Positions 7,533-45,620 of a stretch of DNA of 64,000 nucleotides are shown here, one piece after another. The stretch is from Candidatus Latescibacterota bacterium (GTDB lineage Bacteria > Latescibacterota > UBA2968). Made by a program: the position numbers and the translations under genes. The stretch covers positions 1,280,001-1,344,000 of the forward strand of contig OZ242320.1 of the NCBI GenBank assembly GCA_965208125.1. The letters are read 5' to 3'. Positions within the stretch are counted from its first letter, which is position 1. Each line of letters opens with the position of its first letter. The notes beneath the pieces are model-generated. The model was not told the DNA's origin. It worked only from the letters and a program-made list of their open reading frames with translations, and did no database searches.

Positions 7533-7534
7533 AT

Positions 7535-8431: not shown

Positions 8432-8587
8432 AAATTAGCCGATAGAAATAGAAAAATGCAAGAATAATCTGGTAGCAATAGTATCGCTGTCTGGCGAACA
8501 GTGTAAAAAGCTCCTTTGCCAGACCATATTAACCTGCTATATTCCTGATCCTACTATTCCTCGCCCAATCAATAACAGGAGATAAAC

Positions 8588-9637
8588 ATGGAACTATTAA
8601 AAGAATTGTGTGAATGTTCGGGAGTCCCCGGGCGCGAAGAGCGGTTGCGCGAAATCGTGCGGCGAGAGTTGGAACCCATCGCAGATGAACTTCGCGTAGA
8701 TGGAATGGGCAACTTGATAATCAAAAAGAACGCAAGCGCGGAAGAAAATCCAAAAAAACTGATGCTGGCCGCGCACATGGACGAAATAGGCTTTGTCGTA
8801 TCCCACATCGACAAACAGGGGCTCTTGCGCCTCGTACCCCTCGGCGGGCACGACCCCCGCAACATGGTAGCGCAACGAGTCACCGTCGCAGGCACCGAAA
8901 AAGACTACACCGGCCTGCTCTATCCCGGCGTAAAACCCCCGCATATCCAGACAGAAGCCGACCGCAACAAAAAATTAGACGTCAGCGACTTTGTCGTAGA
9001 TCTCTACATGTCAGCCGACGACGTCAAAGAAGAAATCGAAATCGGCGCAATGGTAACACTACAACGCGACTTTGTCGAAATTGGCAACGGCGTAAGTTGT
9101 AAAGCCATGGACAATCGGCTCGCCGTATATGTCATGATCGAAGCCGTAAAACGGGCCGACTCCTTCGCCTTTGAAACGTATCCCGTAGCCACAGTGCAGG
9201 AAGAAATTGGCCTGCGAGGGGCAACCGCGAGTGCCTTTGGCGTAAACCCAGACGTGGGCGTGGCACTGGACATCACACTGGCAGCCGACATACCGGGCAT
9301 CCCAGAGCACGAACAGGTCACGCGCCTGGGAGAAGGCGCTGCGATAAAAATTCAGGATTCCAGCTCAATTTCACACCCGGGATTAGTCGCACACATGAAA
9401 ACCCTCGCAAAAGAGCGCGACATCAAATACCAGATGGAAATACTGCCTCGGGGCGGCACAGACGCAGGTGGAATACAGCGGATTCGAGCCGGCGTACCCG
9501 TAATCACCCTCTCCATCCCCACGCGCTACGTACACACATCAATCGAATTGGCCGACAAAGACGACATCGAAGCCACCATTCAACTATTGGCAGCCTTTCT
9601 CGAAGAAGGCCACCGCACGAACTGGGACATGGTGTGA
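8588..9637 (+). CDS. M42 family (TET/FrvX) aminopeptidase
   Basis: GVPGRE, AAHMDEIG, KAMDNR, TVQEEIGLRGA, ALDIT, GGTDAG, PTRYVHT. Confidence 0.93.
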   Translation: MELLKELCECSGVPGREERLREIVRRELEPIADELRVDGMGNLIIKKNASAEENPKKLMLAAHMDEIGFVVSHIDKQGLLRLVPLGGHDPRNMVAQRVTVAGTEKDYTGLLYPGVKPPHIQTEADRNKKLDVSDFVVDLYMSADDVKEEIEIGAMVTLQRDFVEIGNGVSCKAMDNRLAVYVMIEAVKRADSFAFETYPVATVQEEIGLRGATASAFGVNPDVGVALDITLAADIPGIPEHEQVTRLGEGAAIKIQDSSSISHPGLVAHMKTLAKERDIKYQMEILPRGGTDAGGIQRIRAGVPVITLSIPTRYVHTSIELADKDDIEATIQLLAAFLEEGHRTNWDMV

Positions 9638-9643: not shown

Positions 9644-10597
9644 TCACCGCCTCTGCTCCTCATGAAAAAGAAACGAAAGCAACGTAAACCGACGTCCCCG
9701 GGTCACCGGCTGGACCTCGTGGAGAAAAGAACTGGAAAACGCGATCGCATCGCCTGCTGGCGGGCGATAGCGGTGGGGACCAAACTCGGGAAAAACCAGA
9801 TAACCACCTGTGTAATCGTCATTGAGATTGAGCGTAAGCGCAAAGCGGCGATGGGCAGTTGAAGGACTGAGATTATCGCGATGAGCGCGAAAAAAACCGC
9901 CACTCTCTGCGTCATAACACGCGATTTTGAAACCCTCAAACCGCGTCGCCCGGTAGTGGAAAGCGCGTTGTACCTCGGGCATAACCCGCCGCCCCACCGT
10001 AGAAGTAAGCAACCGCAAAAGTCGGGCATCGGTAACCTCGTGGTCTCGCCGCTTCTTGTTCTGATAGTCAATAACATCGCGCCGCACGCCAGATTGGGAA
10101 CTTTCAACGCCAGTTTCTATATTGCCCTTTGTCGCCCATACATTGATAAGCGCCTGGCAGATATCCGGAGTCAGAACATTGGGAATAAGCAGAACCGGAG
10201 CCTGGACAGTGACATCAATCGCCTGGTGAGAAGGCAAGCTCTCAAACGCGCGATAAATCTGATCAAACGCATTCGGATCCTCAATCCCCGACAGAACCCG
10301 CAGATTGGCATCCAGCGCGAACGCGGCAAAATCTCCCTCGAGACCATAAGCTTTGCCAACCGCGTTTTCACTGTCGATAAACACTGTAACACTCGCCTTT
10401 GCGAGCTCCGACGGACCAACAACAAAAACATCTACCTCTTCCGAAACTTCCAAACCTTCTAAAACCTGCTCTTCCCCCGTAAAAATCAAAAGTGTCGGGC
10501 GACCACCTGCGCGAGAATAAAAGCGTGTGTGAGGACCGTCTATTGTCGGAAGAACAAAATCGGAAGCGCGTTCACCCCGGTTGAGAATACTCATCAT
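9644..10597 (-). CDS. Fe(II)/2OG oxygenase with N-terminal redoxin-like domain
   Basis: N-terminal GERASDFVLP...VGKAYG...LDANLRV (AhpC/TSA-like, no Cys). C-terminal FRAHRDN, LNLNDDY.GG.L.FPE, LHEV.PVT.G.R. Start uncertain (10594/10597/10618). Confidence 0.8.
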   Translation of the reverse strand: MMSILNRGERASDFVLPTIDGPHTRFYSRAGGRPTLLIFTGEEQVLEGLEVSEEVDVFVVGPSELAKASVTVFIDSENAVGKAYGLEGDFAAFALDANLRVLSGIEDPNAFDQIYRAFESLPSHQAIDVTVQAPVLLIPNVLTPDICQALINVWATKGNIETGVESSQSGVRRDVIDYQNKKRRDHEVTDARLLRLLTSTVGRRVMPEVQRAFHYRATRFEGFKIACYDAESGGFFRAHRDNLSPSTAHRRFALTLNLNDDYTGGYLVFPEFGPHRYRPPAGDAIAFSSSFLHEVQPVTRGRRFTLLSFLFHEEQRR

Positions 10598-10616
10598 GAG
10601 CCTCTTAGCGTTTAAC

Positions 10617-12536
10617 ATGAACCATCATTCACATTGCATTTATCTATTTCTCTTCTTTCTCGGATGCCTTGCCCCCGATTCCGGTCAGAACACACCTGCT
10701 CAATCCACATCCAGCACTCAAAAACACGCACCTCAGACCCGTGCCCCCCTCAAAATTGATCCCGTCATACTCCAGAACCGCACCTTTAACGAAGCCCCCA
10801 TGTTCTCGGAACAGGTCAAACATGGCAAACTCCCACCCGTCTCTGAGCGACTGCCCGAAAATCCCCTCGTCATCGTACCCATCGAAGAAATCGGCACCTA
10901 CGGCGGCACGCTGAGACGCGCCCTCACCGGCGACATCGTACAAACCCCGGGACCCAACAAAACCCTCAACGAAAACCTCATGGGCTATGAACGCCCCTTT
11001 CCAAACAGCATCCAACACAACCTATCTGAGCACTTTACTTATGAGGACAGTGGCAAAGTCGCAATTTTCAAAATCCGCAAAGGCGTCAAATGGTCCGACG
11101 GCCACCCATTCACCGTTGACGACATCCTCTTCTGGTATTACGACATGACCTTTGATGACGACGCCCGTCAAAATCCCTTTCCGCCAGCGGGATGGATGGT
11201 AGATGGCAAACCCATGCAGTTCAAAAAAATTGATCCACACACCCTTGAAATCTCATCGCCCAAACCTCTGGGTCGCGTACTTCACGAACTCAGCCGCGCT
11301 CTAATCGCCGCGCCAAAACACATCCTGTCCCCCCTGCACCCCAAATACAATTCCAAAACCGATTACAACGCCTTTCGCGAAGCCACGACCAGCGCGCAAT
11401 TGCTCATGCAGCCCGGCATCCCTCGCATCTCTGCCTGGATCCCCGTCGAATGGATTAGAGGTCAGCGCATTGTCTATGAGCGCAACCCCTACTACTGGAA
11501 AATAGATACAGCGGGCAATCAGCTTCCCTATGCCGACCGCATCATCTTCAACATCATCCAGGACCCCCAGGTAATCCTGCTAAAATTCATCAACGGCGAA
11601 CTCGACTTAATCGGGCGTTATACCCGCATCGACATGTTCCCCACCCTCAAGGTAAAAGAGAAAAACGGGAAATTCAATCTCCGAATCACCGGACCCAACA
11701 GAGGCCCTGCCTACCACCTCAACTGGGACGCACCCAACCCCGCCTTGCGAGAAGCTTTTCGCAACAAAAACGTCCGCATCGCACTCTCACACGCTATAAA
11801 CCGCGAAGAAATTGACGAAATAGTCTTCCACGGCCTCCTCGACCCCTCGGGCTATTCCTTCGGGCCTATAAGCCCCTATTTTTCTCCAAAAGCCTATAAA
11901 AAATACGCCGAATACGACCCCGACAAAGCCAGACGTCTCCTCGACAGCGAAGGCTATATCGACACCGATGGCGATGGCATCCGCGAACTTCGGGATGGCT
12001 CGCGCTTTGAACTCACCATCGACTTCGTACATCCCGGCGGCATGTTCAACGGCCAACCCGTCTCCGAACTGGTTGCCGACCACTGGCGAACTGTGGGGAT
12101 CAAAGTCAACCTCAACGGCGGCCTGCGCGACATCATTGTCCCTCGCCGCTACAACTGCGAATACGATGTTCACTACTGGGGCCTCGAAGGACCTAACGCC
12201 CCCTTAACATATCCCATTGGCTGGGCTATCCTGGCTAAAAACGTACCCTACTGGCATCAGAAAGCCTGGGACGAAGGTCCCCCCTGGCTGCGCGAAGCCA
12301 CCAGATACGTCCGATTGGCGATGACCACCGTCGATACTGCAAAACTCCGCACATACATGACCCGCGTGCGCGACCTCCACACGGAAAACGTCCCCATCAT
12401 CACCATCGGTTCTGCGTACCACGTTTGGGGTGCCAGCAGTCGCCTGGGCAATATCCCTTATGAAAACGTGGCCGACAACGCCTTTCTGGGCTGGAGTCGG
12501 CCGGTATTTCACGAGCAGATATTTGTGAAAAAATAG
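10617..12536 (+). CDS. ABC transporter substrate-binding protein, family 5 (probable lipoprotein)
   Basis: EAPM....V..G.LPPV.ERLP.NP, IG.YGGTL, IRKGVKWSDG.PFT.DD, RNPYYWK.D..GNQLPY.D, R.ALS.AINR. Lipobox-like FLGC. Confidence 0.9.
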   Translation: MNHHSHCIYLFLFFLGCLAPDSGQNTPAQSTSSTQKHAPQTRAPLKIDPVILQNRTFNEAPMFSEQVKHGKLPPVSERLPENPLVIVPIEEIGTYGGTLRRALTGDIVQTPGPNKTLNENLMGYERPFPNSIQHNLSEHFTYEDSGKVAIFKIRKGVKWSDGHPFTVDDILFWYYDMTFDDDARQNPFPPAGWMVDGKPMQFKKIDPHTLEISSPKPLGRVLHELSRALIAAPKHILSPLHPKYNSKTDYNAFREATTSAQLLMQPGIPRISAWIPVEWIRGQRIVYERNPYYWKIDTAGNQLPYADRIIFNIIQDPQVILLKFINGELDLIGRYTRIDMFPTLKVKEKNGKFNLRITGPNRGPAYHLNWDAPNPALREAFRNKNVRIALSHAINREEIDEIVFHGLLDPSGYSFGPISPYFSPKAYKKYAEYDPDKARRLLDSEGYIDTDGDGIRELRDGSRFELTIDFVHPGGMFNGQPVSELVADHWRTVGIKVNLNGGLRDIIVPRRYNCEYDVHYWGLEGPNAPLTYPIGWAILAKNVPYWHQKAWDEGPPWLREATRYVRLAMTTVDTAKLRTYMTRVRDLHTENVPIITIGSAYHVWGASSRLGNIPYENVADNAFLGWSRPVFHEQIFVKK

Positions 12537-31913: not shown

Positions 31914-34900
31914 ATGGAAACAAAAAGCATCGTCGTAAAAGGTGCGCGAGTACACAACTTGCAAAATGTAGATCTGACGTTGCCCCGACACGCGCTAATA
32001 TGTTTTACCGGCGTTTCCGGTTCGGGCAAGTCGTCGATGGCTTTTGACACCATCTATGCCGAAGGTCAGCGGCGTTATGTAGAATCCCTATCGGCGTATG
32101 CGCGTCAATTTTTGGGACAGATGGAAAAACCCGAAGTAGATCAAATTACGGGATTGTCGCCAACGATCTCCATCGAACAAAAGACCGCGGGGCGCAATCC
32201 CCGCTCAACCGTGGGCACAATAACCGAAATCTACGACTATTTGCGCGTATTATTTGCGCGAATTGGCACCCCCCATTGCGCACATGACGACACGCCAATT
32301 GGGGCGCAAACGCGCGACGGCATTGTAGATCAAATCATGGCACTGGGTGAGGGCACGCGCATTCACATACTCTCTTCTCTCGTACAGGGGCGAAAAGGGG
32401 AATACCAGGACCTGTTTGAAAATTTGCAAAAAGAGGGATATATCCGCGCGCGCGTGGATGGACAGATTGTAACATTGACCCAGACCCCGAAATTGGAGCG
32501 CTACAAAAGACACGATATCGAAGTCGTAATCGATCGGATTATCGCAAAAAAAACAATGCAGGGGCGCATAGGCGAAGCCGTTGATGCCGGTCTCATAATG
32601 GGTAAAGGAGCGGTCATTGTCAGCGCAGAAGGTGAAGACGACCTTCTGCTGAGTACGCACTTTTCCTGCCCCACCTGTGGACGCAGCGCACAGGAACCTG
32701 TACCGCAATTATTCTCATTCAACAGCCCACAGGGCATGTGCCCCGGCTGTCGCGGTTTGGGCACGCGCTTTGCAATGGATCTGGCAAAAGCCGTTCCCAA
32801 TCCCGAATTGTCCGTACTGGAAGGCGCTATCGCGCCGCTGGGCGTGCCCAAAAATCGGTGGAAATCTCACTATTACGCGGGCGTTTTGAAGCGCCATGGT
32901 GCAAATTTGCAAACGCCATGGAAACGCATTTCACCAGAGGGCCAACAGGCATTATTATACGGCATAGACGGCAAAATGACCTTTGAATGGCGCCGCAGCA
33001 ACGGCAGTATAAAACGCCATCGCGATGGGTTTGAGGGCATCCTGCCCCCAATGGAGCGGCAGTTTGCCGAGGGACGGAGTCTCATCGTACGCAAACGACT
33101 GGCACCCTTCATGCGTGTGGGTATATGTCCCGTATGCGAAGGCACCCGCTTAAAACCCGAAGCCCTCTCCGTCAAAATCGAAGGACACACGCTACCCGAT
33201 GTCACGGCAATGACCGTCGATCGCGCGCACGCCTTTTTTCAGAACCTCAAATTGACCGAGATCCAGGCGCGAATTGCCGAAGACGCCCTGAAAGAAATTC
33301 GCGGGCGATTGAAATTTCTCCTCGATGTGGGTCTCGACTATCTCACACTCAACCGCACGGCACCGACACTATCGGGCGGCGAAGCGCAACGCATTCGCCT
33401 CGCCAGCCAGATTGGATCTGGATTGGTCGGTGTAACCTATGTACTGGACGAACCGTCAATTGGTCTGCACCACCGCGACAATCGGCGATTGCTCAATGCC
33501 CTGTGTCACCTGCGAGATGTGGGCAATACTGTGATCGTCGTCGAACACGACGAAGACACCATGCGGCGCGCGGATCGGGTGGTGGATTTTGGACCCGGTC
33601 CCGGGCACCTCGGTGGTCGAATAGTCGCCGAGGGATCGTGGAAACAGGTAGCGAGAAGAACCCGCTCGGTAACGGGCGCTTATCTCTCGGGAAAAGAAAA
33701 AATAGCAGTGCCCGAAAGGCGCTCCGTATCGCATCGCGGCTTATGGATTCGGGGTGCTCACCACAATAATCTCAAAAATATCGACGTGAAAATTCCCGTC
33801 GGCGTATTTACCTGTGTCACGGGCGTATCCGGATCGGGAAAATCATCGCTAATTGCCGATATCCTCTATCCCGCTCTCGCGCGAGAACTCAACCGCGCAG
33901 AAACGGAAACAGGCGCGCACCGCTGCATTGAGGGCATAGATCTCCTGGACAAAGTCATCGAGATCAACCAGCAACCCATCGGGCGCACACCGCGCAGCAA
34001 CGCGGCGACATACACGGGTGTATTTGATCCCATTCGAAAATTATTTGCCGAATTGCCCGAGTCAAAAGTACGGGGATACAAACCCGGACGCTTTAGTTTT
34101 AACGTAAAGGGCGGCCGGTGCGAGGCGTGTAAGGGCAATGGCGCAAACCTCGTCGAAATGGATTTTCTCGCCGACGTGTGGGTGACGTGTCCCGTGTGTG
34201 AAGGGCGGCGTTTTAATCGCGAAACCCTGGACGTGAAGTATAAGGGCAAATCCATTGCCGATGTGCTGGCGATGGAAGTCGAAGAGGCGCATCTGTTTTT
34301 TCAAGCGATCCCCGGTATTCACCGCATTCTCCAAACCCTGGTTGATGTGGGAATGGGCTACGTCAAATTGGGCCAGCCCGCGCCAACACTCTCCGGTGGC
34401 GAAGCACAACGGGTCAAACTATCAAAAGAACTGTGCCGCAGAAGCACGGGCAAAACCCTGTACATCCTGGACGAACCGACGACGGGCCTGCATTTTGCCG
34501 ATATACAAAATCTCTTGAATGTATTGCATCGGCTCGTGAATATGGGCAATTCCGTGGTGGTTATCGAGCACAACCTGGACGTAATCAAAACCGCGGATTG
34601 GGTAATCGATCTGGGACCTGAAGGCGGCGAAGATGGCGGACAAATTCTGACAGAAGGCACACCCGAACACCTGACGCAATCTCCCAACTCTCATACAGGA
34701 CACGCGCTTTGCGAAGTGCTATCGCGCACGCCACTCGTATCTGGGAAAAACGGTAAACGAATCGCCAATGGCCATGTGCGGACCATTGACATTGTGGGTG
34801 CGCGGGAGAACAACTTACAAAATGTGGATGTATCCATTCCCCGCGAAAAAATGACCGTGATCTCCGGCGTATCGGGTTCGGGAAAATCTTCCCTGGCACT

Positions 34901-37574
34901 CGACACAATTTACGCTGAGGGACAGCGGAGATATGTCGAATCCCTATCCGCTTATGCGCGGCAATTTCTGGGACAGATGCCCAAGCCAAAGGTAGATCGC
35001 GTGGTGGGCTTATCGCCCGCGATCGCCATAGAACAAAAAGCCGCGAGCAAAAACCCGCGCTCGACCGTAGGCACCGTAACAGAGGTTTACGATTACCTGC
35101 GGGCACTCTACGCATTATTGGGCGATACCTATTGCCCAGATTGCGATGTATTGGCGGGCAGTCAGTCCGTTCGGGAAATTGTAACGCGCGTGCTGAAAAT
35201 GAAACGACGCCTCTACCTTCTCGCACCCGTAGAACTCGGCAAAGGCGAAGATTATACCAGCTTGATCAACCGCTTTCGCCGCGAAGGCTACTTGCGCGGC
35301 AGACTCAATGGCGATGTCTTCAACCTGTCAAACCCACCCGAAATCGATTACAGACAGACTCACAGGCTCGAAATCCTGATAGATCGCATAATCGCAGAAA
35401 AAAAGAACCGCAAACGCATCGCGGATTCCATCGAAAGCGCGCTGGATATTTCGGGAGGCATTTTGATCGTCGCATCGCCCGACGACAGCGAAGAAACGCG
35501 ATTCAGCCAGCATCTCTCGTGTCCATCCTGCGGGCGCAGTTTTGAAACAATAACCCCTCAGCATCTATCTTTTAACAGCTCTGAAGGCTGGTGCTTATCG
35601 TGCGAAGGACTGGGAACGCAGCGCGGCATGGGCATCCACACATTAATCCCCGACACTCACAAATCACTGTCCGAAGGCGCAGTACTCGCCTGGGGAAAGG
35701 TAGAACCGCACACACAACTGGGCAACATGCTATCTGCGGTCGGCGAAGCCGCGGGCTTTGACCTGCACATCCCTTTTGCGCAAATATCGGCAAAGGGACA
35801 ACACGCGATCTTATACGGCCTGGGCACACAGTGGCTAAAGACCTCTAAAAATCTCTCATTCCAATTCAAGGGCCTGTTTCCCACAATTGAGACCCTCGTG
35901 CGGCAAGCGCCGCGTTTTCGGCGTCTAATGGGAGACTTTATCCAGGATGTGCCGTGTCCGTCCTGCAAGGGAACCCGTCTAAAGCCAGAAAGTACTGCCA
36001 TAAAACTCTTCGGCAAAACAATGCCCCAACTGGTAGCAATGCCCATCCGCGAAGTACGCACCTATTTCGACACAATGGTATTGGAAGGACAGGCGCGCGA
36101 AGCCGCCGCAGAGGTATTGCACGAAATCCAGAGCCGCCTGCGGTTTCTCGACGAAGTGGGCCTGGGATATTTGAACCTGGGACGGCGAGCACCCACGCTA
36201 TCGGGCGGCGAAGCACAGCGCATTCGCCTCGCCAGTCAGATCGGCTCCGGTCTCACCGGAGTACTCTACGTACTCGACGAACCGACAATTGGCCTGCACC
36301 AGCGCGACAACCACCAGTTATTGGCCGCACTGACACAACTGCGCGACCTGGGCAACTCGCTCCTCATTGTCGAACACGACCGCGAGACCCTGAACAGGGC
36401 GGATCACATTTTGGACTTTGGACCCGGCGCGGGTGTTGAAGGCGGGCGCATAGTAGCTGCGGGCAATCCGCGCAATTTGAAAAGCAACAACGGCTCGGTA
36501 ACCGCGCATTATCTCGCGGGCGATCTGCAAATCGAGGTCCCCGATGTGCGGCGAAACCCCGAACGGGGATCGCTTTCTGTGGTAGGCGCGCGGCATAACA
36601 ATTTAAAAAATGTCCATGTCTCATTTCCGCTGGGCACCTTGACCTGCGTGACCGGCGTATCTGGCTCGGGTAAAAGTTCGCTCGTCAACGACGTACTCTT
36701 CGGCGCGCTCGCCGCCCGCGTGAACCGCGCACAAAAAGCCTGGGGAGAACACGACGATGTGCTGGGACTGGAACTCATCGACAAAGTGATCAACATCGAC
36801 CAGACACCCATTGGCTATTCGCCGCGCAGCAATCCCGCGACCTATGTCAAAGTATTCGACAAAATACGCACCCTGTATGCCAGTTTGCCAGACGCCCAGG
36901 TGCGCGGATTTAAAACCGGGCATTTCAGCTTTAATCACAAGCACGGGCGGTGCGATGCCTGTGCGGGCCTGGGCGCGCGCTGTATAGAAATGCACTTCTT
37001 GCCCGATGTGTGGATCACATGTGAAAATTGTGGCGGAAAGCGCTACAACCGCGACGTGATCGACATAACCTATAAGGGTGCGTCAATCGCCGATGTCCTA
37101 AAAATGACAGTAGCCGAAGCCCTATCGCATTTTACCCATATACCCGGCATCCAGCGATCGCTCCAAACCCTATTTGACGTGGGCCTGGGCTATATCAAAA
37201 TGGGACAGGCATCGACCACACTCTCGGGCGGCGAAGCCCAGCGCGTAAAATTGGCGCGCGAATTGGCGCGACCGAGCACCGGAAAAACCGTGTATATCCT
37301 CGACGAACCGACAACGGGACTGCACTTTGCCGACATCCAGAAATTGCTCGACGTACTCAACCGACTCGTCAACGCGGGCAATACCGCAATCGTAATCGAA
37401 CACAACCTGGACGTAATCAAAACCGCCGACTGGGTCATCGACCTGGGACCAGAAGGCGGAGAAGACGGTGGCGATTTAATAGCTTGTGGAACGCCCGAAG
37501 ACGTGGTATCTGTCACAGCTTCACACACCGGACGATTCTTGAAGGACGTATTGGCAGGTATTGAAACAGGGTAA
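31914..37574 (+). CDS. uvrA: Excinuclease ABC subunit A, tandem double-length form (1886 aa)
   Basis: Two complete UvrA units. Four GVSGSGKSS Walker A, four LSGGEAQR, four LDEP, and zinc fingers in both halves. Confidence 0.97.
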   Translation: METKSIVVKGARVHNLQNVDLTLPRHALICFTGVSGSGKSSMAFDTIYAEGQRRYVESLSAYARQFLGQMEKPEVDQITGLSPTISIEQKTAGRNPRSTVGTITEIYDYLRVLFARIGTPHCAHDDTPIGAQTRDGIVDQIMALGEGTRIHILSSLVQGRKGEYQDLFENLQKEGYIRARVDGQIVTLTQTPKLERYKRHDIEVVIDRIIAKKTMQGRIGEAVDAGLIMGKGAVIVSAEGEDDLLLSTHFSCPTCGRSAQEPVPQLFSFNSPQGMCPGCRGLGTRFAMDLAKAVPNPELSVLEGAIAPLGVPKNRWKSHYYAGVLKRHGANLQTPWKRISPEGQQALLYGIDGKMTFEWRRSNGSIKRHRDGFEGILPPMERQFAEGRSLIVRKRLAPFMRVGICPVCEGTRLKPEALSVKIEGHTLPDVTAMTVDRAHAFFQNLKLTEIQARIAEDALKEIRGRLKFLLDVGLDYLTLNRTAPTLSGGEAQRIRLASQIGSGLVGVTYVLDEPSIGLHHRDNRRLLNALCHLRDVGNTVIVVEHDEDTMRRADRVVDFGPGPGHLGGRIVAEGSWKQVARRTRSVTGAYLSGKEKIAVPERRSVSHRGLWIRGAHHNNLKNIDVKIPVGVFTCVTGVSGSGKSSLIADILYPALARELNRAETETGAHRCIEGIDLLDKVIEINQQPIGRTPRSNAATYTGVFDPIRKLFAELPESKVRGYKPGRFSFNVKGGRCEACKGNGANLVEMDFLADVWVTCPVCEGRRFNRETLDVKYKGKSIADVLAMEVEEAHLFFQAIPGIHRILQTLVDVGMGYVKLGQPAPTLSGGEAQRVKLSKELCRRSTGKTLYILDEPTTGLHFADIQNLLNVLHRLVNMGNSVVVIEHNLDVIKTADWVIDLGPEGGEDGGQILTEGTPEHLTQSPNSHTGHALCEVLSRTPLVSGKNGKRIANGHVRTIDIVGARENNLQNVDVSIPREKMTVISGVSGSGKSSLALDTIYAEGQRRYVESLSAYARQFLGQMPKPKVDRVVGLSPAIAIEQKAASKNPRSTVGTVTEVYDYLRALYALLGDTYCPDCDVLAGSQSVREIVTRVLKMKRRLYLLAPVELGKGEDYTSLINRFRREGYLRGRLNGDVFNLSNPPEIDYRQTHRLEILIDRIIAEKKNRKRIADSIESALDISGGILIVASPDDSEETRFSQHLSCPSCGRSFETITPQHLSFNSSEGWCLSCEGLGTQRGMGIHTLIPDTHKSLSEGAVLAWGKVEPHTQLGNMLSAVGEAAGFDLHIPFAQISAKGQHAILYGLGTQWLKTSKNLSFQFKGLFPTIETLVRQAPRFRRLMGDFIQDVPCPSCKGTRLKPESTAIKLFGKTMPQLVAMPIREVRTYFDTMVLEGQAREAAAEVLHEIQSRLRFLDEVGLGYLNLGRRAPTLSGGEAQRIRLASQIGSGLTGVLYVLDEPTIGLHQRDNHQLLAALTQLRDLGNSLLIVEHDRETLNRADHILDFGPGAGVEGGRIVAAGNPRNLKSNNGSVTAHYLAGDLQIEVPDVRRNPERGSLSVVGARHNNLKNVHVSFPLGTLTCVTGVSGSGKSSLVNDVLFGALAARVNRAQKAWGEHDDVLGLELIDKVINIDQTPIGYSPRSNPATYVKVFDKIRTLYASLPDAQVRGFKTGHFSFNHKHGRCDACAGLGARCIEMHFLPDVWITCENCGGKRYNRDVIDITYKGASIADVLKMTVAEALSHFTHIPGIQRSLQTLFDVGLGYIKMGQASTTLSGGEAQRVKLARELARPSTGKTVYILDEPTTGLHFADIQKLLDVLNRLVNAGNTAIVIEHNLDVIKTADWVIDLGPEGGEDGGDLIACGTPEDVVSVTASHTGRFLKDVLAGIETG

Positions 37575-37800: not shown

Positions 37801-37941
37801 CGACTTTAAAAGACCAAATAGTGACGAAAATTGGAAAATGTTGTATTCCTTGGAGGAAATAGCTTATCTTGGTTGTCATTGCGGCATGGTGTTTAGCCGC
37901 AATCCAGTCTGCCAAATAAGAACAAAATGAGGTAAACAGTT

Positions 37942-40107
37942 ATGACTCTTAAAACTCATGACGGAGTATCCTCGCTCTCTGAAACCGAGAGCGTAATTAG
38001 AGAATATGAAACAGGAGAAGAGCAGCGACATGCCCAACAATTACTCGGCTCTCTCGTACAGGCCGATCAGTATGTAGGGGAGGTCTATTCGCTTGGGTAT
38101 GAGACCGCTCTTGTGCAAATTCACGATTTCCACCGCCGAGAGGTTGGCGGTATTCCAAGTCTTTGCTTTCTCATCGCCACGCGAATTGGTCCGGACGAGA
38201 CATTCGACTACACTAAGGAAGATAGTTCGATAATTCTACTACGCGTAATGGATGCAGCACCGTTGCCAAACGCGGACGAGGCGACCAGAGTGCGTGTACA
38301 GGCTGCGCAGCAGGTATCTGGTCCTACTGAAGAGCATTGGGATCATTCCGACGTGATGGACTTTAATACTTCACAGCTATTAAGTTACGCCGGAGTGCAG
38401 TGCCGTGTCATCGGGACGTTCTATTTGCAACCTTCAGGCGTTGGGGTCGATGAACGGCTACGTCTCCAGTTTGGTGCTGACCTGTCGAACTATTACCCCA
38501 ACCAAGGGCTGAAGGTTTATAAACCGAATGGCAAGGCTTTGCGGCAGATAGTAAATTATCGTGAGATAGACAGCACTGGAGTGGACATCGGCGAAGTTCG
38601 GTACGCCTCAACCAACCGCGCTTTTCAAGGCATTTTCGACGTTCCAGTGACAATTGTACCGGAAGACTTGTTAGGGCAAAAAAGCGCACTATTCGGGATG
38701 ACACGGACTGGTAAGTCGAATACGACGAAGATCATAGCAGAGGCGGTGTTCAATCTTCGATATAATTCGAATTCGCCGCGGAAGGTGGGGCAGATCATCT
38801 TCGATCCGAATGGAGAATACGCTAATGCCAATGCACAAGACTCCGGTGGGGAGGCTCCAAATGCGCTCAAGAACGTGTGGCGTGGACGCAAGGAGGGTAA
38901 TTCCGAAGATGTGGTTACTTATGGAATCCTTGATCATCCCAATGATCCCGAACGGGAGTTCATGTTGCTAAACTTCCACGCCGAAGAGAACCTACCTATT
39001 GGAAAAGAAATCATTGACGGGGTGCTGCCAGCACGAGACTCAAAGTACATCCAGAACTTCCAGCAAGTTCGTTTACAGCCACTTGAATCAGGAGCGGGAT
39101 TCGGAGACCAGATCCGCTACGCTCGACAAGTGTTGGCATATCGTACCTTGCTGGTAAAGTCTGACTTTACCGCTCCCAACACTATTCAGCCGCGCACTAC
39201 CCTCCCCAACAACCTCTTTAACCAAGACCTGATCCAAGCACTGACAGATAACGGAGACCCCGAATTTGCGTCCGCGGCGCGAACATTTGGAACAGAAATA
39301 CCGAGTTGGGACCGACTGGCGCAGGCGTTCGAAGCACTCCATAGGTTCATAGGGACTAACGATTACAAAAGTTTTGAGAATGAATACATTCAAAACTCCT
39401 CTTCTGGCGAGGCGTGGGCTGATGGAGATCTAAAAGCCATATTAGAGATGATTGCACGTCCGAATGGTGCTCAACTCATTAGACAGGCACGGCCTCAGCA
39501 TACCGAGAGCACTACTACGGATTATGTTGACGATATTTATAATGCGTTAGTTGCTGGGAAACTCGTGATCGTGGATCAGTCCAGCGGAGATGAGGAAATA
39601 AACGACGCCTCGGCGCGTCGAATCGTGCAACGCATCTTTGACGGCAATAAAGAAGCATTCAGAGAGGGACGCTCGAAGGAAGAAATACCGGATATTCTCA
39701 TTTACGCTGAGGAAGCGCATAACCTGCTTCCGTCGGATCGCGAGACAGATTATCGAGATATATGGGTTCGCACAGCAAAGGAAGGCGCAAAGTACAATCT
39801 CGGCTTGATCTACGTCACACAGGAAGTGTCGAGTATCCAAAGGAATATTCTAAAGAATACTGCGAACTGGTTTATCGGCCACCTCAATAACACGGATGAA
39901 ACGCGAGAACTTCGAAAGTTCTATGACTTCGCTGATTTTGAAGGGTCGATTCTCCGCGCCCAAGATAAAGGCTTTCTCCGAGTCAAAACTATTTCAAATC
40001 CTTTCGTGGTCCCCATACAGGTGCAGGAGTTTAAGTTAAAGCTGGTTAAACTGGAGGCTTCTGCATCACAGTCGGGGACTCCTACACAACAACTCAACTT
40101 GGTATAG
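37942..40107 (+). CDS. herA: HerA/FtsK-superfamily ATPase (DUF87)
   Basis: N-terminal HAS-barrel-like region, Walker A GMTRTGKSN, IFDPNGEY, Walker B IYAEEAHN, KEGAKY..GL..VTQ. RBS GAGGT. Confidence 0.88.
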   Translation: MTLKTHDGVSSLSETESVIREYETGEEQRHAQQLLGSLVQADQYVGEVYSLGYETALVQIHDFHRREVGGIPSLCFLIATRIGPDETFDYTKEDSSIILLRVMDAAPLPNADEATRVRVQAAQQVSGPTEEHWDHSDVMDFNTSQLLSYAGVQCRVIGTFYLQPSGVGVDERLRLQFGADLSNYYPNQGLKVYKPNGKALRQIVNYREIDSTGVDIGEVRYASTNRAFQGIFDVPVTIVPEDLLGQKSALFGMTRTGKSNTTKIIAEAVFNLRYNSNSPRKVGQIIFDPNGEYANANAQDSGGEAPNALKNVWRGRKEGNSEDVVTYGILDHPNDPEREFMLLNFHAEENLPIGKEIIDGVLPARDSKYIQNFQQVRLQPLESGAGFGDQIRYARQVLAYRTLLVKSDFTAPNTIQPRTTLPNNLFNQDLIQALTDNGDPEFASAARTFGTEIPSWDRLAQAFEALHRFIGTNDYKSFENEYIQNSSSGEAWADGDLKAILEMIARPNGAQLIRQARPQHTESTTTDYVDDIYNALVAGKLVIVDQSSGDEEINDASARRIVQRIFDGNKEAFREGRSKEEIPDILIYAEEAHNLLPSDRETDYRDIWVRTAKEGAKYNLGLIYVTQEVSSIQRNILKNTANWFIGHLNNTDETRELRKFYDFADFEGSILRAQDKGFLRVKTISNPFVVPIQVQEFKLKLVKLEASASQSGTPTQQLNLV

Positions 40108-40110
40108 ACT

Positions 40111-41475
40111 ATGCCATTTGAAGGCGAATTTGCAAGTTATAAGCCACTCGCACGGATCGCTAATAGCGAACGCGTTCAGGATATTGTGAGTCGATGTAAG
40201 AAACAGGTACCCGATGAAGGGCCAGCAGAGGCAGAACTACTTATTGCCGATGTGAAACCGAGTGACTGGCTACCCGATCTCGTTCTCGCCATAGATGGAA
40301 GTCTCCATCCGCCGGTACCAGTCGAGAATGGATATCCTGGGGCAGAACTGGCCTACCTCACTGTTGCCTCAGTTATTATCGATGTGAAGAAACAACGTGA
40401 ATTGGACCGAAACCGCCCGGTGGCTCCGTTGGTGGCGCGTACAACCGAAGGGGCGGGTAGCATCGACTGTGCGCTTCCCGGTTGCAACGTAGTTGTGGAT
40501 AATGAACTGACTCCAAACGCTTCATTCCGCCGCGTATTCTTTGAGGCCATCCAGGAGAAACGTCCATTCTCTGACGGAGAAACACTACTTGAGACATACG
40601 AGGCACTTTTGAAGTACAAACCTTCGATACGATCGCAGCAGTGTCCCTATGAGGGTTGCGAGTTTGACTACGATCCGCGCCCAGGTATGATGGATTGCAG
40701 ATGCGAACAGAAATTGAATTGGTACTCAACCGATGCCCTCCGCATTCACGAGAGGTTTAATCCGGTAGGACCAAATGGAGCAGTTTTTACAGAGGCAATG
40801 CAGGTGTGGGAGCGGGTGTGGATCGTGAACTTTCTTCGCTGGATTGAGCGCGATCCTCGACGCTTCCGACTGCTTCGCAACCTCGCCATTATTCTCGATG
40901 GACCGCTTGCGGTATTTGGACAACCGGCCTGGCTTAGCCAAGCGATACGTCAAGAATTAAAACGCATCAACGAGGCTGTTCGCAAAGTGATAGATAGCGA
41001 TATTCTGATCGTCGGTATCGTAAAAAGCGGGGCATTTGTTGATCACTACGAGATATTAGATACTCCTACACATGGAACAAACGGAAACTCACGATTCAAG
41101 CCACAGACAGCAGTACTCCTCACAAACGAATATATCCGTACTCACATCGCCATCAGTGCCATCAATGATAAACCGTTTGGTGATGCCACTTACTTTGGGC
41201 GGACGTTTTTCTATAAAACCTCTTCAGGTGCTCGGATCGTTGCCTCCCTTCCCTTTCTCACAGAGGATGCACGGGACCTATCGAGTGGGGATGCAAGGCA
41301 CTTTCCGCGCCTTGCTGATGCCATGAGCCTGCTTGATGCGACCTTCTCAGCACGCTTTCCGAATGCGGTGGCTCCGCTCGTATCAGCCCACGCCGAGGCA
41401 GCGATTCCACTTAATCTTGGACGCGAAGTCCTCGAGCAACTTGCAAAGAAGCTGATGTCCGAGGAGCAATCATGA
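40111..41475 (+). CDS. nurA: NurA-domain (RNase H-fold) nuclease
   Basis: LAIDGS, ILDGPL, VGIVKSG, FFYK, P..P...AH..A. Starts 3 bp after herA. Confidence 0.75.
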   Translation: MPFEGEFASYKPLARIANSERVQDIVSRCKKQVPDEGPAEAELLIADVKPSDWLPDLVLAIDGSLHPPVPVENGYPGAELAYLTVASVIIDVKKQRELDRNRPVAPLVARTTEGAGSIDCALPGCNVVVDNELTPNASFRRVFFEAIQEKRPFSDGETLLETYEALLKYKPSIRSQQCPYEGCEFDYDPRPGMMDCRCEQKLNWYSTDALRIHERFNPVGPNGAVFTEAMQVWERVWIVNFLRWIERDPRRFRLLRNLAIILDGPLAVFGQPAWLSQAIRQELKRINEAVRKVIDSDILIVGIVKSGAFVDHYEILDTPTHGTNGNSRFKPQTAVLLTNEYIRTHIAISAINDKPFGDATYFGRTFFYKTSSGARIVASLPFLTEDARDLSSGDARHFPRLADAMSLLDATFSARFPNAVAPLVSAHAEAAIPLNLGREVLEQLAKKLMSEEQS

Positions 41476-42556
41476 TACAAGAGGGGATAGCACGCTGGGC
41501 TGCCGTAGGTCCGTACTATGCAATGTTTCCAATGCACTTTGCTTTCGAGGTTATTGAGGGGTACACGCAGCCCGGAGACCGCATCCTTGATCCATTCGTT
41601 GGACGAGGGTCAAGTATCTATGCTGCTGCAGCTAAAGAACGAACAGGATGTGGTATAGAGATTAATCCAGTCGGATGGGTGTACAGTAGCGTAAAACTAC
41701 GCCCAGTAACACAAGGGCGCGTTCTTAAGCGCTTGCGAGAAATCGGATATGAGGCTAAAAGAATAGCCATAGGTCGTGCGAACCTACCTACGTTCTTCGA
41801 ATGGGCTTATGCGCCAGATGTGTTGCGTTTTTTACTGGCCTCTCGTGATATCCTGCGCTGGAGAGATAGTAAAGTAGATCGTACATTGATGGCGTTTATC
41901 CTGATACACCTGCACGGCAAACGCCTGGGTTCGCTATCTAACCAGATGCGGGACAGTAAATCAATGGCTCCTGATTATGCCGTGCGGTGGTGGCGCAAGC
42001 GCGAAATGAGACCTCCTGACATAGATCCTGTAGCCTTTTTAGAACAGCGGATTGAACGGCGGTATAAGAAGGGAACACCTGACTTGGAGGGTGAAGTGCT
42101 TCTTGGGGACAGTGTTCAACTACTTAATTCAAATAGGCGACGACGCGCTTTTGCTTTGCCATTTGATCTCCTGTTCACGTCGCCACCCTACTATGGCGTG
42201 ACCAACTATCACTACGACCAGTGGCTCCGTTTATGGATGCTCGGACATGATCCAACTCCGCGATGGCGAGGAGGGCGTTGGCAGAGAAAATTTCAGTCGA
42301 GGTCTGATTACCTCGAACTACTTGCGGATGTGTTTGGTGGGGCTGCCCACGCATGCGCGATAATGCTATTGTCATAGTTCGTACAGATGCTCGTGAGTTT
42401 ACGCACTCGGCTACTGTCCAGGCACTACGAACAGCCTTTCCCAACAAGGATCTGCGTGAAGAACCTCGTCCTTTAAAAAGAAAAACACAAACCGCTCTAT
42501 ACGGCGATACTTCGAAGAAGCCTGGGGAAGTAGATATTATTATGACTCCTAAATGA
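41472..42556 (+). pseudogene. DNA methyltransferase (N4-C/N6-A type), split by a -1 frameshift near 42340-42353
   Basis: GPYYAMFP, motif I ILDPFVGRGS, GIEINP, motif IV FTSPPY. The frame stops at 42377 but the protein appears to continue in 42353..42556 (AIVIVRTDAR...KPGEVDII). ATGA overlap with nurA. Confidence 0.8.
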
Positions 42557-42588: not shown

Positions 42589-42617
42589 TTGATATTATGC
42601 TATTACTTTTGTATAAT
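42589..42617 (+). promoter_or_regulatory. Near-consensus sigma70 promoter
   Basis: TTGATA-17 nt-TATAAT with an A-tract immediately upstream. Confidence 0.75.
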
Positions 42618-42623: not shown

Positions 42624-42697
42624 AATTAACCACCCCTGTTGCTTCGGGAGCAGGGCACGGAGCCGTATAGAGATTCTATACGGCTCCTGTATTTTTT
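42624..42697 (+). ncRNA. Putative ~75-nt leader/antitoxin-like RNA (UUCG hairpin plus terminator)
   Basis: CCCTGTT-g-C(TTCG)G-g-AGCAGGG, then a 13-bp perfect stem GGAGCCGTATAGA/TCTATACGGCTCC followed by TGTATTTTTT. It lies between the promoter and the NYN start codon. Confidence 0.5.
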
Positions 42698-42706: not shown

Positions 42707-43360
42707 ATGAAAACAAATGTCTATATTGATGGGCTTAATTTATATTATAGAGCCGTTCAGGGCACACCTTATAAGTGGCTGGATATAGTTAAATTAGTTC
42801 AAAAAAGGTACCCTCAAAACACTATTCGTAAAATTAAGTATTTCACTTCGATTGTACAATCGCGCTCTGATGACCCAGGAAAACCAGTGCGTCAACAGAT
42901 ATACTTGCGGGCTTTACGGACTTTTTCACAAATTGAAATTATTGAAGGAAAATTTCAGACCAACAAAGTTAGACTGCCATTGGCATCACCACCACATAAC
43001 ACTGTAGAAGTTTTGAGAACCGAAGAAAAAAGTTCAGATGTCAATCTGGCTGTTCATCTGTTAAACGATGCTTACAAAAAGGATTATGAAGTTGCTATTG
43101 TTGTGTCAAATGATTCTGATTTATCAGAAGCCTTACGAATTGTGACTCAAGACCTAAACCTGACAGTAGGTGTTGTATTTCCTACTGGTGCGATTGATCC
43201 ACATACAGGCACACGGCATATAGTTAGAAAATCGAGAGATCTTCAAAAATATGCCACATTTATAGGCGAAATTAGATTAGGAGGTCTCTCGCGCAGTCAA
43301 CTGCCTAATACATTGAAAGATGCAAAAGGCACTTTTCATAAACCACCAGAATGGCAGTAA
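42707..43360 (+). CDS. NYN domain (PIN-fold, LabA/DUF88) ribonuclease
   Basis: VYIDGLNLYY, IKYFTS, RQ..YL.AL, EEKSSDVNLA..LL.DA, VVSNDSDL (catalytic Asp set intact). Confidence 0.9.
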   Translation: MKTNVYIDGLNLYYRAVQGTPYKWLDIVKLVQKRYPQNTIRKIKYFTSIVQSRSDDPGKPVRQQIYLRALRTFSQIEIIEGKFQTNKVRLPLASPPHNTVEVLRTEEKSSDVNLAVHLLNDAYKKDYEVAIVVSNDSDLSEALRIVTQDLNLTVGVVFPTGAIDPHTGTRHIVRKSRDLQKYATFIGEIRLGGLSRSQLPNTLKDAKGTFHKPPEWQ

Positions 43361-44797: not shown

Positions 44798-45148
44798 CTA
44801 TCGTGTGATATACTTGGGACGATTGACGGCTTCTGCGACCTGAATATGTGCGCTATGCCCAATTTTTGGCCGAACGACAATATCGATGTCCCGGTCTAAT
44901 GCCCGCAAGAAAGACAACAGACGCTCGATAGAAAATCCGGCCAATCGTCCATTTTTGAGAGCCGATACTTTGGGTTGGTCAATGCCGAGAACACCTGCGG
45001 CTTTTTTTTGCGTCCAACCTTTTTGTCCAATGATTTTATTAATTTGAATTGCTAAATCTGATTTTGCCAATTCTTCTTCTGGACGGTCAAATTCCAGGTC
45101 CTTGAATACGTTGCCCGACCCGACTGTGTAGTCTGCTTTTTCGCTCAT
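44798..45148 (-). CDS. XRE-family HTH antitoxin
   Basis: GSGNVF.DL, K..L...I......TQ..AA..LGI.QPKVS.L..G.L..FS.ERL..FL..L...I.I.V. Confidence 0.9.
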   Translation of the reverse strand: MSEKADYTVGSGNVFKDLEFDRPEEELAKSDLAIQINKIIGQKGWTQKKAAGVLGIDQPKVSALKNGRLAGFSIERLLSFLRALDRDIDIVVRPKIGHSAHIQVAEAVNRPKYITR

Positions 45149-45504
45149 GTTTTATTTTCCTTTGCAATTTGTTCTGCCATTTTCAAACGTCTTTTTATCG
45201 TATCCAGATCGCGTTTTGTTGTTGCAATACCGCGTTTTGATTTTTTTTGAAAGACATGCAAGACATAGATGTTGTCGTCAATTTTTATTGCATAAACTGC
45301 TCGATAAGTGTTTGTTGCATAATCGCTGACAATTTCAATGACGCCAGAAAAGCCCTTTAACGTCTTTGCTTTATGAGATCTTTCTCCAACTTCCTCCATG
45401 TGAAGCGCGTGTCCAATTTCTCGTCTCACTGCACCTGGAAGTTTCCGCAGGTCTCTTAGCGATGAACCGATCCAGATAATGGATCTTTGGAGTTTTGCAT
45501 CCAT
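45145..45504 (-). CDS. RelE/ParE-family (Gp49/DUF891-like) toxin
   Basis: W.GSS..DL..LP..VR..IG..L, K.LKG..GV.EI, YRAVY, IYVLHVFQKKSK.GI.T...D...I..R. ATGA coupling to the antitoxin. Confidence 0.9.
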   Translation of the reverse strand: MDAKLQRSIIWIGSSLRDLRKLPGAVRREIGHALHMEEVGERSHKAKTLKGFSGVIEIVSDYATNTYRAVYAIKIDDNIYVLHVFQKKSKRGIATTKRDLDTIKRRLKMAEQIAKENKT

Positions 45505-45511
45505 AATAGAT

Positions 45512-45533
45512 AATATGCTAAATTTAGCATATT
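45512..45533. promoter_or_regulatory. 22-bp perfect palindrome, probable TA autorepression operator
   Basis: AATATGCTAAATTTAGCATATT, 7 bp upstream of the toxin ATG and next to TTGCAA. Confidence 0.7.
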
Positions 45534-45620
45534 TTTGCAAGTGGACTTGACCTGTTTTGGTGGTTACCTTATTAGTATTCTTAATTTTCAATTTCTAATT
45601 AGCATTCTCAGGAGGCATTA

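Follow-up and report, generated by a model that had tools for sequence, protein, structure and literature searches.

In the TdpABC system of thermophiles, sulfur reportedly blocks translocation of TdpAB on self DNA, and solved structures of the system are deposited as PDB entries 8wet, 8wfd and 8y1k (An et al., Nat Chem Biol, 2025). Tdp is classed as a phosphorothioate-based restriction-modification (R-M) system with a single modification gene, tdpC, which makes the phosphorothioate (PMC12914056). A second point of comparison is the operon on ICETh1 of Thermus thermophilus, in which a type IIG enzyme (TthHB27I/Tth111II), a NurA-like nuclease, the HerA/FtsK-like ATPase TdtA and a putative pfam01555 methylase are co-transcribed (PMC5365140, PMC7767461), and for which it has been proposed, under the term ‘transjugation’, that the NurA-like nuclease and TdtA expel donor DNA from the donor cell.

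The locus described here lies in a window of 64,000 nucleotides (the whole stretch of DNA that was analysed) from a Candidatus Latescibacterota bacterium. Domain, fold and coordinate evidence agree with an earlier note in placing three co-oriented genes for a HerA-type ATPase, a NurA nuclease and a DNA methyltransferase at 37942-42556 on the + strand (Table 1), and these are coupled in the manner it described, with the herA TAG stop followed by a 3-bp gap before the nurA ATG, and the methylase ATG lying in an ATGA shared with the nurA stop. Also as it had stated, neither Mre11/Rad50 (SbcCD) nor a recognisable restriction endonuclease turned up when the remaining 46 window ORFs of at least 100 aa were examined (43 ORFs plus UvrA, NYN and GH5). 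The codon style, which had been thought distinct from the flanks, is not significantly different, the GC3 of the trio being 0.46-0.50, at z -0.7 to -1.2 relative to 43 background genes (0.558 ± 0.082). The proposed position between uvrA and a GH5 gene is correct on the uvrA side but not on the other, where an NYN gene intervenes.

Table 1. Features of the three-gene locus, in window coordinates.
Feature	Position	Strand	Remarks
Conserved non-coding block, putative promoter/operator	37803-37941	+	aligns with herA-upstream DNA of L001 and L006
herA homologue, HerA/FtsK-type hexameric ATPase-translocase	37942-40107	+	721 aa, apparently intact
nurA homologue, NurA-fold nuclease	40111-41475	+	454 aa, apparently intact
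DNA amino-methyltransferase, frameshifted	41472-42556	+	frame 1 = 41472-42377 (301 aa)
1-bp deletion site in methyltransferase gene	42346-42348	+	CCC versus CCCC in L001 and L005
Terminator-like hairpin and T-run	42659-42697	+	13-bp stem, 7 GC pairs, then TGTATTTTTT
NYN gene, low GC	42707-43360		between the trio and GH5

The ATPase carries the Pfam DUF87/HerA central domain (E 1.6e-12) and is matched by several PADLOC HerA models (best 1.6e-19) as well as by mad8 (2.5e-12). In an alignment of 28 sequences, the Walker A (GKS) and EEAH Walker B motifs are invariant columns, and the window copy keeps every invariant column of the family, these included. Among solved structures, the profile of the ATPase family finds TdpA (8wet_A) at E 1.3e-21, with both Walker regions aligned, and next Sulfolobus HerA at 1e-10. 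The window nuclease itself has no match in Pfam, NCBIfam or PADLOC, and 18 of the 25 aligned members of its family are matched by Pfam NurA (PF09376). Its AlphaFold model (pLDDT 74.7) retrieves only NurA structures in Foldseek at E<=0.001, the best being chain G of the TdpAB complex (8wfd_G; 7.3e-7, TM 0.56 on the target), followed by D. radiodurans NurA (7f6d_G) and then Sulfolobus NurA (2ygk). The family conserves DGS (as an invariant IDGS motif), a second DG and a C-terminal AHxE region, and all three NurA motifs given in a recent review, namely two ‘DG’ motifs and a C-terminal one of the LxxAHxxxA type (PMC13748450), are readable in the window protein. A four-cysteine insertion (C178, C183, C196 and C198) is also present, of which C178, C196 and C198 are invariant. 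Relative to the closest loci L001, L005 and L002, dN/dS is 0.10-0.14 for the ATPase and 0.08-0.14 for the nuclease; the range across all three genes is 0.08-0.20.

The third protein scores 37.4 bits with Pfam N6_N4_Mtase, above the cut-off of 26.7 (E 3.4e-9), and matches PADLOC MTase_II (PDLC03325, 2.1e-20), with motif I near the N-terminus and a TSPPY motif IV near residue 238, which is the alpha-class (Dam-like) order. Its L001 orthologue is intact (361 aa, 98% identical) and yields a model (pLDDT 90.7) whose best matches are E. coli Dam, DpnM and T4 Dam. The window copy does need repair, as the earlier note had held: in a DNA alignment its C-run is short by one C relative to L001, L005 and L002, and the last ~70 codons, which are conserved, are readable at 42347-42556 in another frame when both frames are aligned as protein. 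Judged from these alignments, the frameshift may be either a real mutation, and the copy freshly inactivated, or a one-base assembly error.

Conservation of the trio was assessed in a census of 80 loci from species-representative genomes, these being the top-ranking ones of 187 relatives that were confirmed out of 415 pattern matches. Among these best 80, a HerA match lies upstream of NurA in 78 and a same-strand methylase match downstream of NurA in 79, so that a methylase missing from beside herA-nurA homologues, which the earlier note had named as an observation that would speak against it, is found only in L007. In 77 loci the methylase follows NurA directly, the remainder including L034, with a 0.6-kb gap, and L052, with a 4-kb insertion; in L052 an AAA_21 and DUF4276 pair is embedded within the trio. 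All-against-all clustering of 935 ORFs gives three widespread clusters (79, 78 and 74 loci) and a next largest of 8 loci; no fourth conserved gene emerged from this clustering across the 80 loci, and the flanking genes bear no relation from one locus to the next. The whole trio is intact in 60 of the 80 loci, and the median gaps over 57 loci are 3 bp between HerA and NurA and <=23 bp between NurA and the methylase. Furthermore, the three proteins co-diverge, with correlations between their pairwise distance matrices of r 0.79-0.86 (Mantel p 0.001, 59 loci), the value for NurA versus the methylase being 0.86. From gene content and order, the trio is evidently a self-contained three-gene module.

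The module is also, on phylogenetic grounds, one that is exchanged among many bacterial phyla, with a patchy spread. Phyla are intermingled in the NurA tree, which requires 22 phylum-label changes for 15 phyla (minimum 14) and places the Latescibacterota clade as sister to a Rhodothermota and Cyanobacteriota pair (support 99). More distant versions occur in a Vibrio prophage, between integrase and excisionase, on a haloarchaeal (Halorarius) plasmid and on a Deferribacter megaplasmid, and close homologues of HerA and NurA lie without a methylase on a Tolypothrix plasmid. The methylase of the Vibrio prophage belongs to the D12-class DPPY family rather than the SPPY one, which suggests that the modification partner of HerA-NurA is swappable; it is encoded on the opposite strand, and in Deferribacter the methylase lies upstream of HerA. 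Within the four nearest ORFs, a transposase or recombinase, R-M, toxin-antitoxin nuclease or SIR2 gene is present at 18 of 41 scanned loci, a raw count from carrier loci alone, whereas the other 23 have none of these gene types, many of their neighbours being housekeeping genes (dnaA/dnaN, HSP70) or lacking a Pfam match. A Type III R-M system lies directly upstream of the trio in L017, L026 and L028.

Compared with TdpABC, the trio shares a three-gene composition of ring ATPase, nuclease and one DNA-modification gene; no solved protein is closer in sequence to the ATPase family than TdpA, or in fold to the nuclease than chain G of TdpAB. The likeness is remote, as the NurA-family profile has no sequence-level match in the PDB, and the proteins differ in size (ATPase 721 versus 586 aa; nuclease 454 versus 358 aa, with the Cys4 insertion) and in the modification enzyme, which here is an SPPY amino-methyltransferase and there TdpC (PMC12914056). 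The SIR2-HerA and DUF4297-HerA systems are likewise compact defence operons that join a HerA-type ATPase to an effector, and PADLOC HerA models match the window ATPase, but here the effector is NurA, those systems are without a modification gene, and NCBIfam HerA_antiphage scores the ATPase at 42.8 and 35.7 bits, far below cut-offs of 800 and 850. No named system fits the trio in a PADLOC 2.0.0 search.

The best explanation, to which a probability of roughly 0.6 may be given on this comparative evidence, is that the trio is a mobile R-M-like defence module which corresponds to Tdp but marks by methylation: the methylase would label self DNA, and HerA-NurA would destroy whatever DNA is unlabelled. 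The methyltransferase would place an N4-cytosine or N6-adenine mark on host DNA, and this mark would be protective. The HerA ring would pump double-stranded DNA with a dimeric NurA nuclease docked on it, together forming the destroying part that threads and degrades mark-free DNA, probably from free ends or breaks; the gene order of ATPase, nuclease and modification enzyme would be that of TdpABC. The R-M-like reading of the earlier note is partly supported, by the conserved trio, the mobile spread and the kinship to Tdp, but its ‘unconventional restriction module’ already has a precedent in the published Tdp, and the Thermus DNA-donation operon, the methylase-free Tolypothrix pair and the pattern of gene breaks weigh against it. 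Methylase-only breaks are seen in 2 of the 80 loci (L032 and L055) and in the window, HerA/NurA-side-only breaks in 5-7 (L008, L030, L042, L043 and L049, possibly also L037 and L071, which are at contig ends); per kilobase the former are about as frequent as the latter and not rarer than chance, although many of these are metagenome bins, where assembly errors can produce frameshifts. With a strictly lethal restriction partner, fewer methylase-only breaks than seen would be expected, and a dependence on DNA ends would explain why loss of the methylase is not necessarily lethal. Conservation is as high in the putative target-recognition part of the methylase as in its catalytic part (majority fraction 0.60 versus 0.60-0.69), so that there is no sign of the specificity diversification often seen in R-M systems.

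Type I and III R-M systems also encode a DNA motor driven by ATP together with a nuclease and a methyltransferase, and the trio could form a single complex of that kind, with the methylase as a sequence-reading subunit docked on HerA-NurA that sets where the motor-nuclease loads or cuts. The overlap of the methylase start with the nurA stop in the window, the closeness of the genes throughout the family, the co-divergence of NurA and methylase, the conserved middle part of the methylase, and the want of any obvious sequence-reading domain in HerA and NurA other than the Cys4 insertion would suit such a complex. We consider it unlikely, as the Vibrio methylase, from another family and on the opposite strand, and the Deferribacter methylase, upstream of HerA, fit a free-standing enzyme more easily. 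Compared with Type I and III systems, the trio has a HerA/FtsK ring where they have an SF2 helicase, an RNase H-like NurA fold where they have PD-(D/E)xK, and no specificity subunit.

That the trio is instead a DNA-export or processing module of a mobile element, with an accessory methylase, is improbable. The ICETh1 operon, compared here by its published description, does contain the same three domain families on a mobile element; mutants in its nurA-like gene or in tdtA no longer donate DNA, donation being the role assigned to the operon (PMC5365140), and loss of its methylase has minor transfer effects (PMC7767461). However, its order is NurA-ATPase-methylase, and it includes a type IIG enzyme and an integrase, neither of which is conserved with the trio in any of the 80 loci. 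Of the 41 loci scanned, just 7 have a transposase or recombinase among the nearest ORFs, and it is TdpA and chain G of TdpAB that come closest to the family among solved structures.

Very improbable is housekeeping end resection of double-strand breaks, as by the archaeal and Deinococcus HerA-NurA pairs (PDB 2ygk, 4d2i, 7f6d, 9x1l-p), with the methylase an unrelated neighbour or regulator. Both folds and the adjacency of the genes are shared with those pairs, relatives are named ‘DNA double-strand break repair nuclease NurA’ at NCBI, and uvrA adjoins the trio in the window, L001 and L006. These three loci are near-identical Latescibacterota, though, and are the only ones with uvrA, flanks elsewhere being unrelated; moreover, the methylase is kept and co-diverges with HerA and NurA, Mre11/Rad50 is absent from the window, the phyletic pattern is patchy, the module has decayed in the close relative L006, and the NCBIfam HerA equivalog models give the ATPase 32-53 bits where their cut-offs are 800-970. 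Equally improbable is a selfish module of addiction (post-segregational killing) that propagates itself without net protection. It would suit the compact unit, its horizontal spread and frequent decay, and in sequence would look the same as a defensive one, but methylase-only breaks with intact HerA-NurA argue against strong addiction.

The conserved block upstream of herA, separated from uvrA in L001 by ~4.7 kb of other genes, is a putative promoter, and a search of its + strand found no sigma-70-like match. Downstream of the operon and ahead of the NYN gene, the terminator-like hairpin is a consensus match only; as a promoter-like site at 42589-42617 precedes it, the NYN gene may be the one to which it belongs.

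The identities of the three components and the conserved linkage of their genes are established. A scan of one genome per species gave 415 pattern matches, including 187 confirmed relatives of the nuclease, the best 80 of which were kept. Among these best 80 of 187 loci, a HerA match lies upstream of NurA in 78 and a same-strand methylase match lies downstream in 79 (directly after NurA in 77, 0.6 kb from it in L034 and past a 4-kb insertion in L052), while the methylase is absent from L007; the retention of a methylase beside herA-nurA homologues, which the reading in the earlier note presupposed, is thereby borne out. Clustering of 935 ORFs from the loci produced three widely shared clusters (79, 78 and 74 loci), and because the next cluster is common to only 8 loci, there is no fourth conserved gene and the flanks are unrelated between loci. 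The whole trio is intact in 60 of the best 80 of 187 loci, with six more cut by contig ends, and the median gaps in 57 loci are 3 bp (HerA-NurA) and at most 23 bp (NurA-methylase). Between the three proteins, pairwise distances are correlated, with r 0.79-0.86 and a Mantel p of 0.001 over 59 loci. On a NurA tree (FastTree, 60 rows, excluding 20 broken or edge-cut loci and one lacking a protein in all three ORF clusters), the phylum label changes 22 times, although 14 changes would suffice for the 15 phyla, and the window groups with three Latescibacterota genomes, the sister group being a pair from Rhodothermota and Cyanobacteriota. The window thus most likely stems from a genome of Latescibacterota.

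In the window itself, the genes are co-oriented and coupled as the earlier note had described, with the short gap and the overlap listed in the table of coordinates. The deviant codon style that was also claimed for the trio relative to its flanks was dropped, the difference not being significant when tested.

Coordinates of the trio, of other window features and of elements in related loci (L-numbers; L083 is the Tolypothrix plasmid NZ_CP050441)
Sequence	Feature	Position	Strand	Remark
Window	Double-UvrA ORF	31914-37574	+	1886 aa, single ORF; two UvrA_inter and two UvrA_DNA-bind domains
Window	ORF 1, HerA/FtsK-type ATPase	37942-40107	+	721 aa
Window	ORF 2, NurA-like nuclease	40111-41475	+	454 aa; 3 bp after ORF 1
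Window	ORF 3, methylase frame 1	41472-42377	+	301 aa; start overlaps ORF 2 stop (ATGA)
Window	C-run short of one C	42346-42348
Window	Strong promoter-like site	42589-42617
Window	Hairpin with T-run	42659-42697
Window	NYN-domain protein gene	42707-43360	+	217 aa; GC 0.378, GC3 0.267, z -3.5
Window	Gp49-like (HigB-type) and HTH_37 genes	44801-45591	-	GC3 0.32 and 0.42; between GH5 and short-chain dehydrogenase genes
L017	Type III R-M pair	1080-5908		directly upstream of trio, co-oriented
L026	Type III R-M pair	935-5892		directly upstream of trio, co-oriented
L028	Type III R-M pair	1057-5913		directly upstream of trio, co-oriented
L052	AAA_21/AAA_15 ATPase and DUF4276 protein	10370-12203		between NurA and methylase
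L008	IS transposase gene (DDE_Tnp_4)	7033-7932		inside nurA
L040	IS transposase gene (DDE_5)	6516-7877		inside nurA
L083	HTH gene, HerA, NurA homologue, RNase_T/STAND-like protein	2623-9326

The product of ORF 1 is a HerA/FtsK-type ATPase, with matches to Pfam PF01935 (DUF87; 48.5 bits, cut-off 23.2, E 1.6e-12) and to the PADLOC HerA models (up to 1.6e-19), and with the GxxGxGKS (Walker A) and EEAH (Walker B) motifs forming invariant columns in a 28-sequence alignment of the family. The window nuclease itself has no Pfam, NCBIfam or PADLOC match at E<=0.01, PF09376 included. It is identified as a NurA with the RNase H-like NurA fold because 18 of its 25 aligned relatives match Pfam NurA (PF09376; best E 7.2e-16), because relatives carry the source name 'DNA double-strand break repair nuclease NurA', and because all four Foldseek matches at E<=0.001 of its AlphaFold model (pLDDT 74.7, pTM 0.77) are NurA or TdpAB chains. 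Within the family alignment D62-G63-S64 and D263-G264 are invariant, and an insertion has four cysteines, three of them invariant and the fourth almost so. The nuclease family is sizeable: a search of 1.84 billion representatives with its profile yields 316 clusters (50% identity) at E<=1e-30.

The methylase is an N4/N6 DNA amino-methyltransferase: it matches Pfam PF01555 (N6_N4_Mtase; 37.4 bits against a cut-off of 26.7), and both DPFxGRG (SAM-binding motif I) and TSPPY (motif IV) are invariant in 26 methylase sequences. As motif I comes first, with TSPPY following about 190 residues later, and as the nearest folds to a model of the intact methylase of the close relative L001 (pLDDT 90.7) are Dam, DpnM and T4 Dam, the enzyme has the alpha-class, Dam-type topology. 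The SPPY motif may point to a specificity for N4-cytosine. Members of the wider methylase family also occur outside the trio, more distant homologues of about 33% identity being encoded on Rhizobium and Allochromatium plasmids away from HerA-NurA.

No PADLOC 2.0.0 or NCBIfam model names the trio and no description of it was found in the literature searched. The closest solved relatives of its motor and nuclease are those of the phosphorothioate-based Tdp system, although these are remote (TM 0.46/0.56, 13% identity, and for the nuclease no sequence-level match). The ATPase-family profile matches TdpA (8wet) with an E-value of 1.3e-21, both Walker regions being aligned, which is eleven orders of magnitude better than its match to Sulfolobus HerA or to the SIR2- and DUF4297-associated HerAs. 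Likewise, the nuclease model finds its top structural match in the TdpAB-DNA complex (8wfd), chain G of which (358 aa; E 7.3e-7) outranks both Deinococcus and Sulfolobus NurA. The phosphorothioation enzyme TdpC, however, is absent from the trio, the third conserved gene encoding a methyltransferase in 79 of the best 80 of 187 loci, and the trio is thus the Tdp gene order with a methyltransferase replacing TdpC. In the Tdp system, sulfur reportedly stops TdpAB on self DNA. Tdp is named among the phosphorothioate-based R-M systems (PMC13223576) and is described elsewhere as a third such system, with tdpC alone making the modification (PMC12914056).

The archaeal HerA-NurA-Mre11-Rad50 repair cluster differs in its Mre11 and Rad50, which, as had been remarked for the immediate neighbourhood, are encoded by none of the window ORFs and are also missing from the conserved clusters of the best 80 of 187 loci. 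A 2026 review describes bacterial NurA-HerA complexes as directed mainly against foreign DNA (PMC13748450), and a 2026 Thermococcus study suggests that the archaeal complex acts against foreign DNA too (PMC12977600). In the SIR2-HerA and DUF4297-HerA systems the effector beside HerA is SIR2 or DUF4297, whereas here it is NurA-like, and the trio ATPase falls far below the cut-offs of the NCBIfam HerA_antiphage models. MADS (mad1-8) gives only weak matches (mad8, 2.5e-12, for the ATPase; mad2, 4.4e-5, for the methylase); PADLOC did not find the multi-gene mad set, and the NurA-like and NYN proteins have no mad match. Two papers on HerA/FtsK 'capture systems' describe other architectures in the text available (PMC10853773, PMC12839542).

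The Thermus element ICETh1 holds the only operon with these three domain families to have been studied by experiment; it was read as a DNA-secretion system that needs the NurA-like and TdtA genes but can almost do without the methylase (PMC5365140, PMC7767461). In contrast to ICETh1, the trio in the window has neither a type IIG enzyme beside it nor an integrase/att-bounded element around it, and no flanking repeats bound it, the only ones seen being short pairs at chance level.

The most likely mechanism, to which we assign a probability of about 0.6, is that the methylase would mark host DNA while a HerA ring together with NurA would thread and degrade unmarked DNA; that the mark protects, and in which direction the system acts, is argued here by analogy with Tdp and from the logic of R-M. 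The principle already exists in Tdp, and the trio would add methylation in place of phosphorothioate. We propose, more tentatively and as something possible rather than probable, that the trio represents a widespread unnamed class of R-M system in at least 15 bacterial phyla and haloarchaea, with exchangeable methylases and a Tdp/HerA-NurA-type ring translocase-nuclease held off self by base methylation instead of phosphorothioate. Since such a system would act from DNA ends, loss of the methylase would be tolerated, unlike in classical R-M addiction.

The state of the methylase genes bears on this point. Alignment with the closest relatives (L001, L005 and L002) reveals that one C is missing from a C-run in the window, interrupting the methylase frame, and the last ~70 conserved codons can be read in another frame to 42556; the intact protein has 361 residues in L001, and the family median is 373. 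Because the window HerA and NurA keep every invariant residue of their family alignments and dN/dS is 0.08-0.20 for all three genes (window versus L001, L005 and L002), the break is either recent or an assembly error. The trio does decay in this lineage, as L006, closely related and with its copy at the same uvrA...GH5 site, has a truncated NurA and has lost most of the methylase. Methylase-only breaks occur in 2 of the best 80 of 187 loci and in the window, and breaks confined to the HerA/NurA side occur in 5-7 of the 80; per gene length the former are not rarer, albeit with small numbers and with most genomes being bins. Furthermore, the middle part of the methylase, which presumably recognises the target, matches the catalytic parts in conservation. 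The lack of asymmetry and the conserved middle part would both argue against a classical R-M picture, and both would be in line with a nuclease that depends on free DNA ends and at first spares an unmarked circular chromosome. A recognisable restriction endonuclease next to the methylase, which a classical Type II R-M system would call for, is lacking: no such family is found among the window ORFs, in agreement with the earlier note.

Distant versions of the trio were found by protein searches of annotated plasmids and phages. A haloarchaeal (Halorarius) plasmid keeps the order of the trio, with a hypothetical protein between DUF87 and a methyltransferase; on a Deferribacter megaplasmid the methyltransferase comes first, then a DUF87 gene split by an IS, then NurA; and two Vibrio prophages have, between integrase and excisionase, a HerA whose annotation is divided into two CDS, a NurA-like gene and, on the opposite strand, a methylase. 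Profile searches identify HerA and NurA of all these versions as homologues (E 1e-40 to 1e-150), and the methylases from Halorarius (3e-33) and Deferribacter (3.5e-43) fall into the SPPY family. The Vibrio methylase is a D12-class DPPY enzyme, and the modification partner can therefore be swapped. On the Tolypothrix plasmid (L083), the genes run from an HTH gene through close HerA (E 1.7e-150) and NurA homologues to one for an 816-aa RNase_T exonuclease/STAND-like NTPase protein, without a methylase; the motor-nuclease pair may here serve a different system.

If the proposal is correct, HerA-NurA, familiar above all as the archaeal machine for DNA-end resection, would do the killing in a broad family of immune systems that depend on modification, and Tdp would be only the phosphorothioate branch of this family. 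The trio would then offer a simple three-gene system for how a backbone-gripping ring motor senses a base methyl group, and the 'DNA donation' operon of ICETh1, with the same three parts, would merit a second look.

The window genes around the trio are those of ordinary metabolism. Among 41 other loci, whose 148 neighbour ORFs were compared with Pfam (raw counts without a control set), 18 have, in the four ORFs closest to the trio, a gene for a transposase or recombinase, for R-M, for a PIN/YoeB/TumE-type toxin or for SIR2, and in 23 the neighbours are housekeeping or unannotated; of a further 130 neighbour ORFs, which lie outside these counts, seven from L052 and L043 were scanned as well. 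Three of the 18 loci, in a Chloroflexota/Cyanobacteriota clade of the NurA tree (L017, L026 and L028), have a Type III pair of Mod (N6_N4_Mtase) and Res (ResIII, RE_endonuc) next to the trio. L052, with its insertion between NurA and the methylase, is from a cultured Pyxidicoccus, and versions of the trio also occur in cultured Micromonospora and Vasconcelosia strains. Of the two loci with a transposase gene in nurA, the methylase is intact in L008 and also broken in L040.

The stretch from uvrA to the downstream dehydrogenase is variable: the window has a low-GC NYN gene and a Gp49/HTH_37 pair, L001 has neither, and in L001 ~4.7 kb of other genes separate uvrA from herA. The NYN gene is a sharply low-GC insert, preceded by the promoter-like site and hairpin listed in the table and missing from the same site in L001, L005 and L006; its product matches HEC-09 (1.2e-36), a candidate defence family of PADLOC, and phrog_7929 (6.9e-51). 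The Gp49-like and HTH_37 genes are likely a toxin-antitoxin pair and, since GH5 and the dehydrogenase are adjacent in L001, represent another insertion in this stretch. Upstream of the trio, the window uvrA comprises two complete UvrA units in one ORF, and L006 has the same double-UvrA ORF of 1886 residues.
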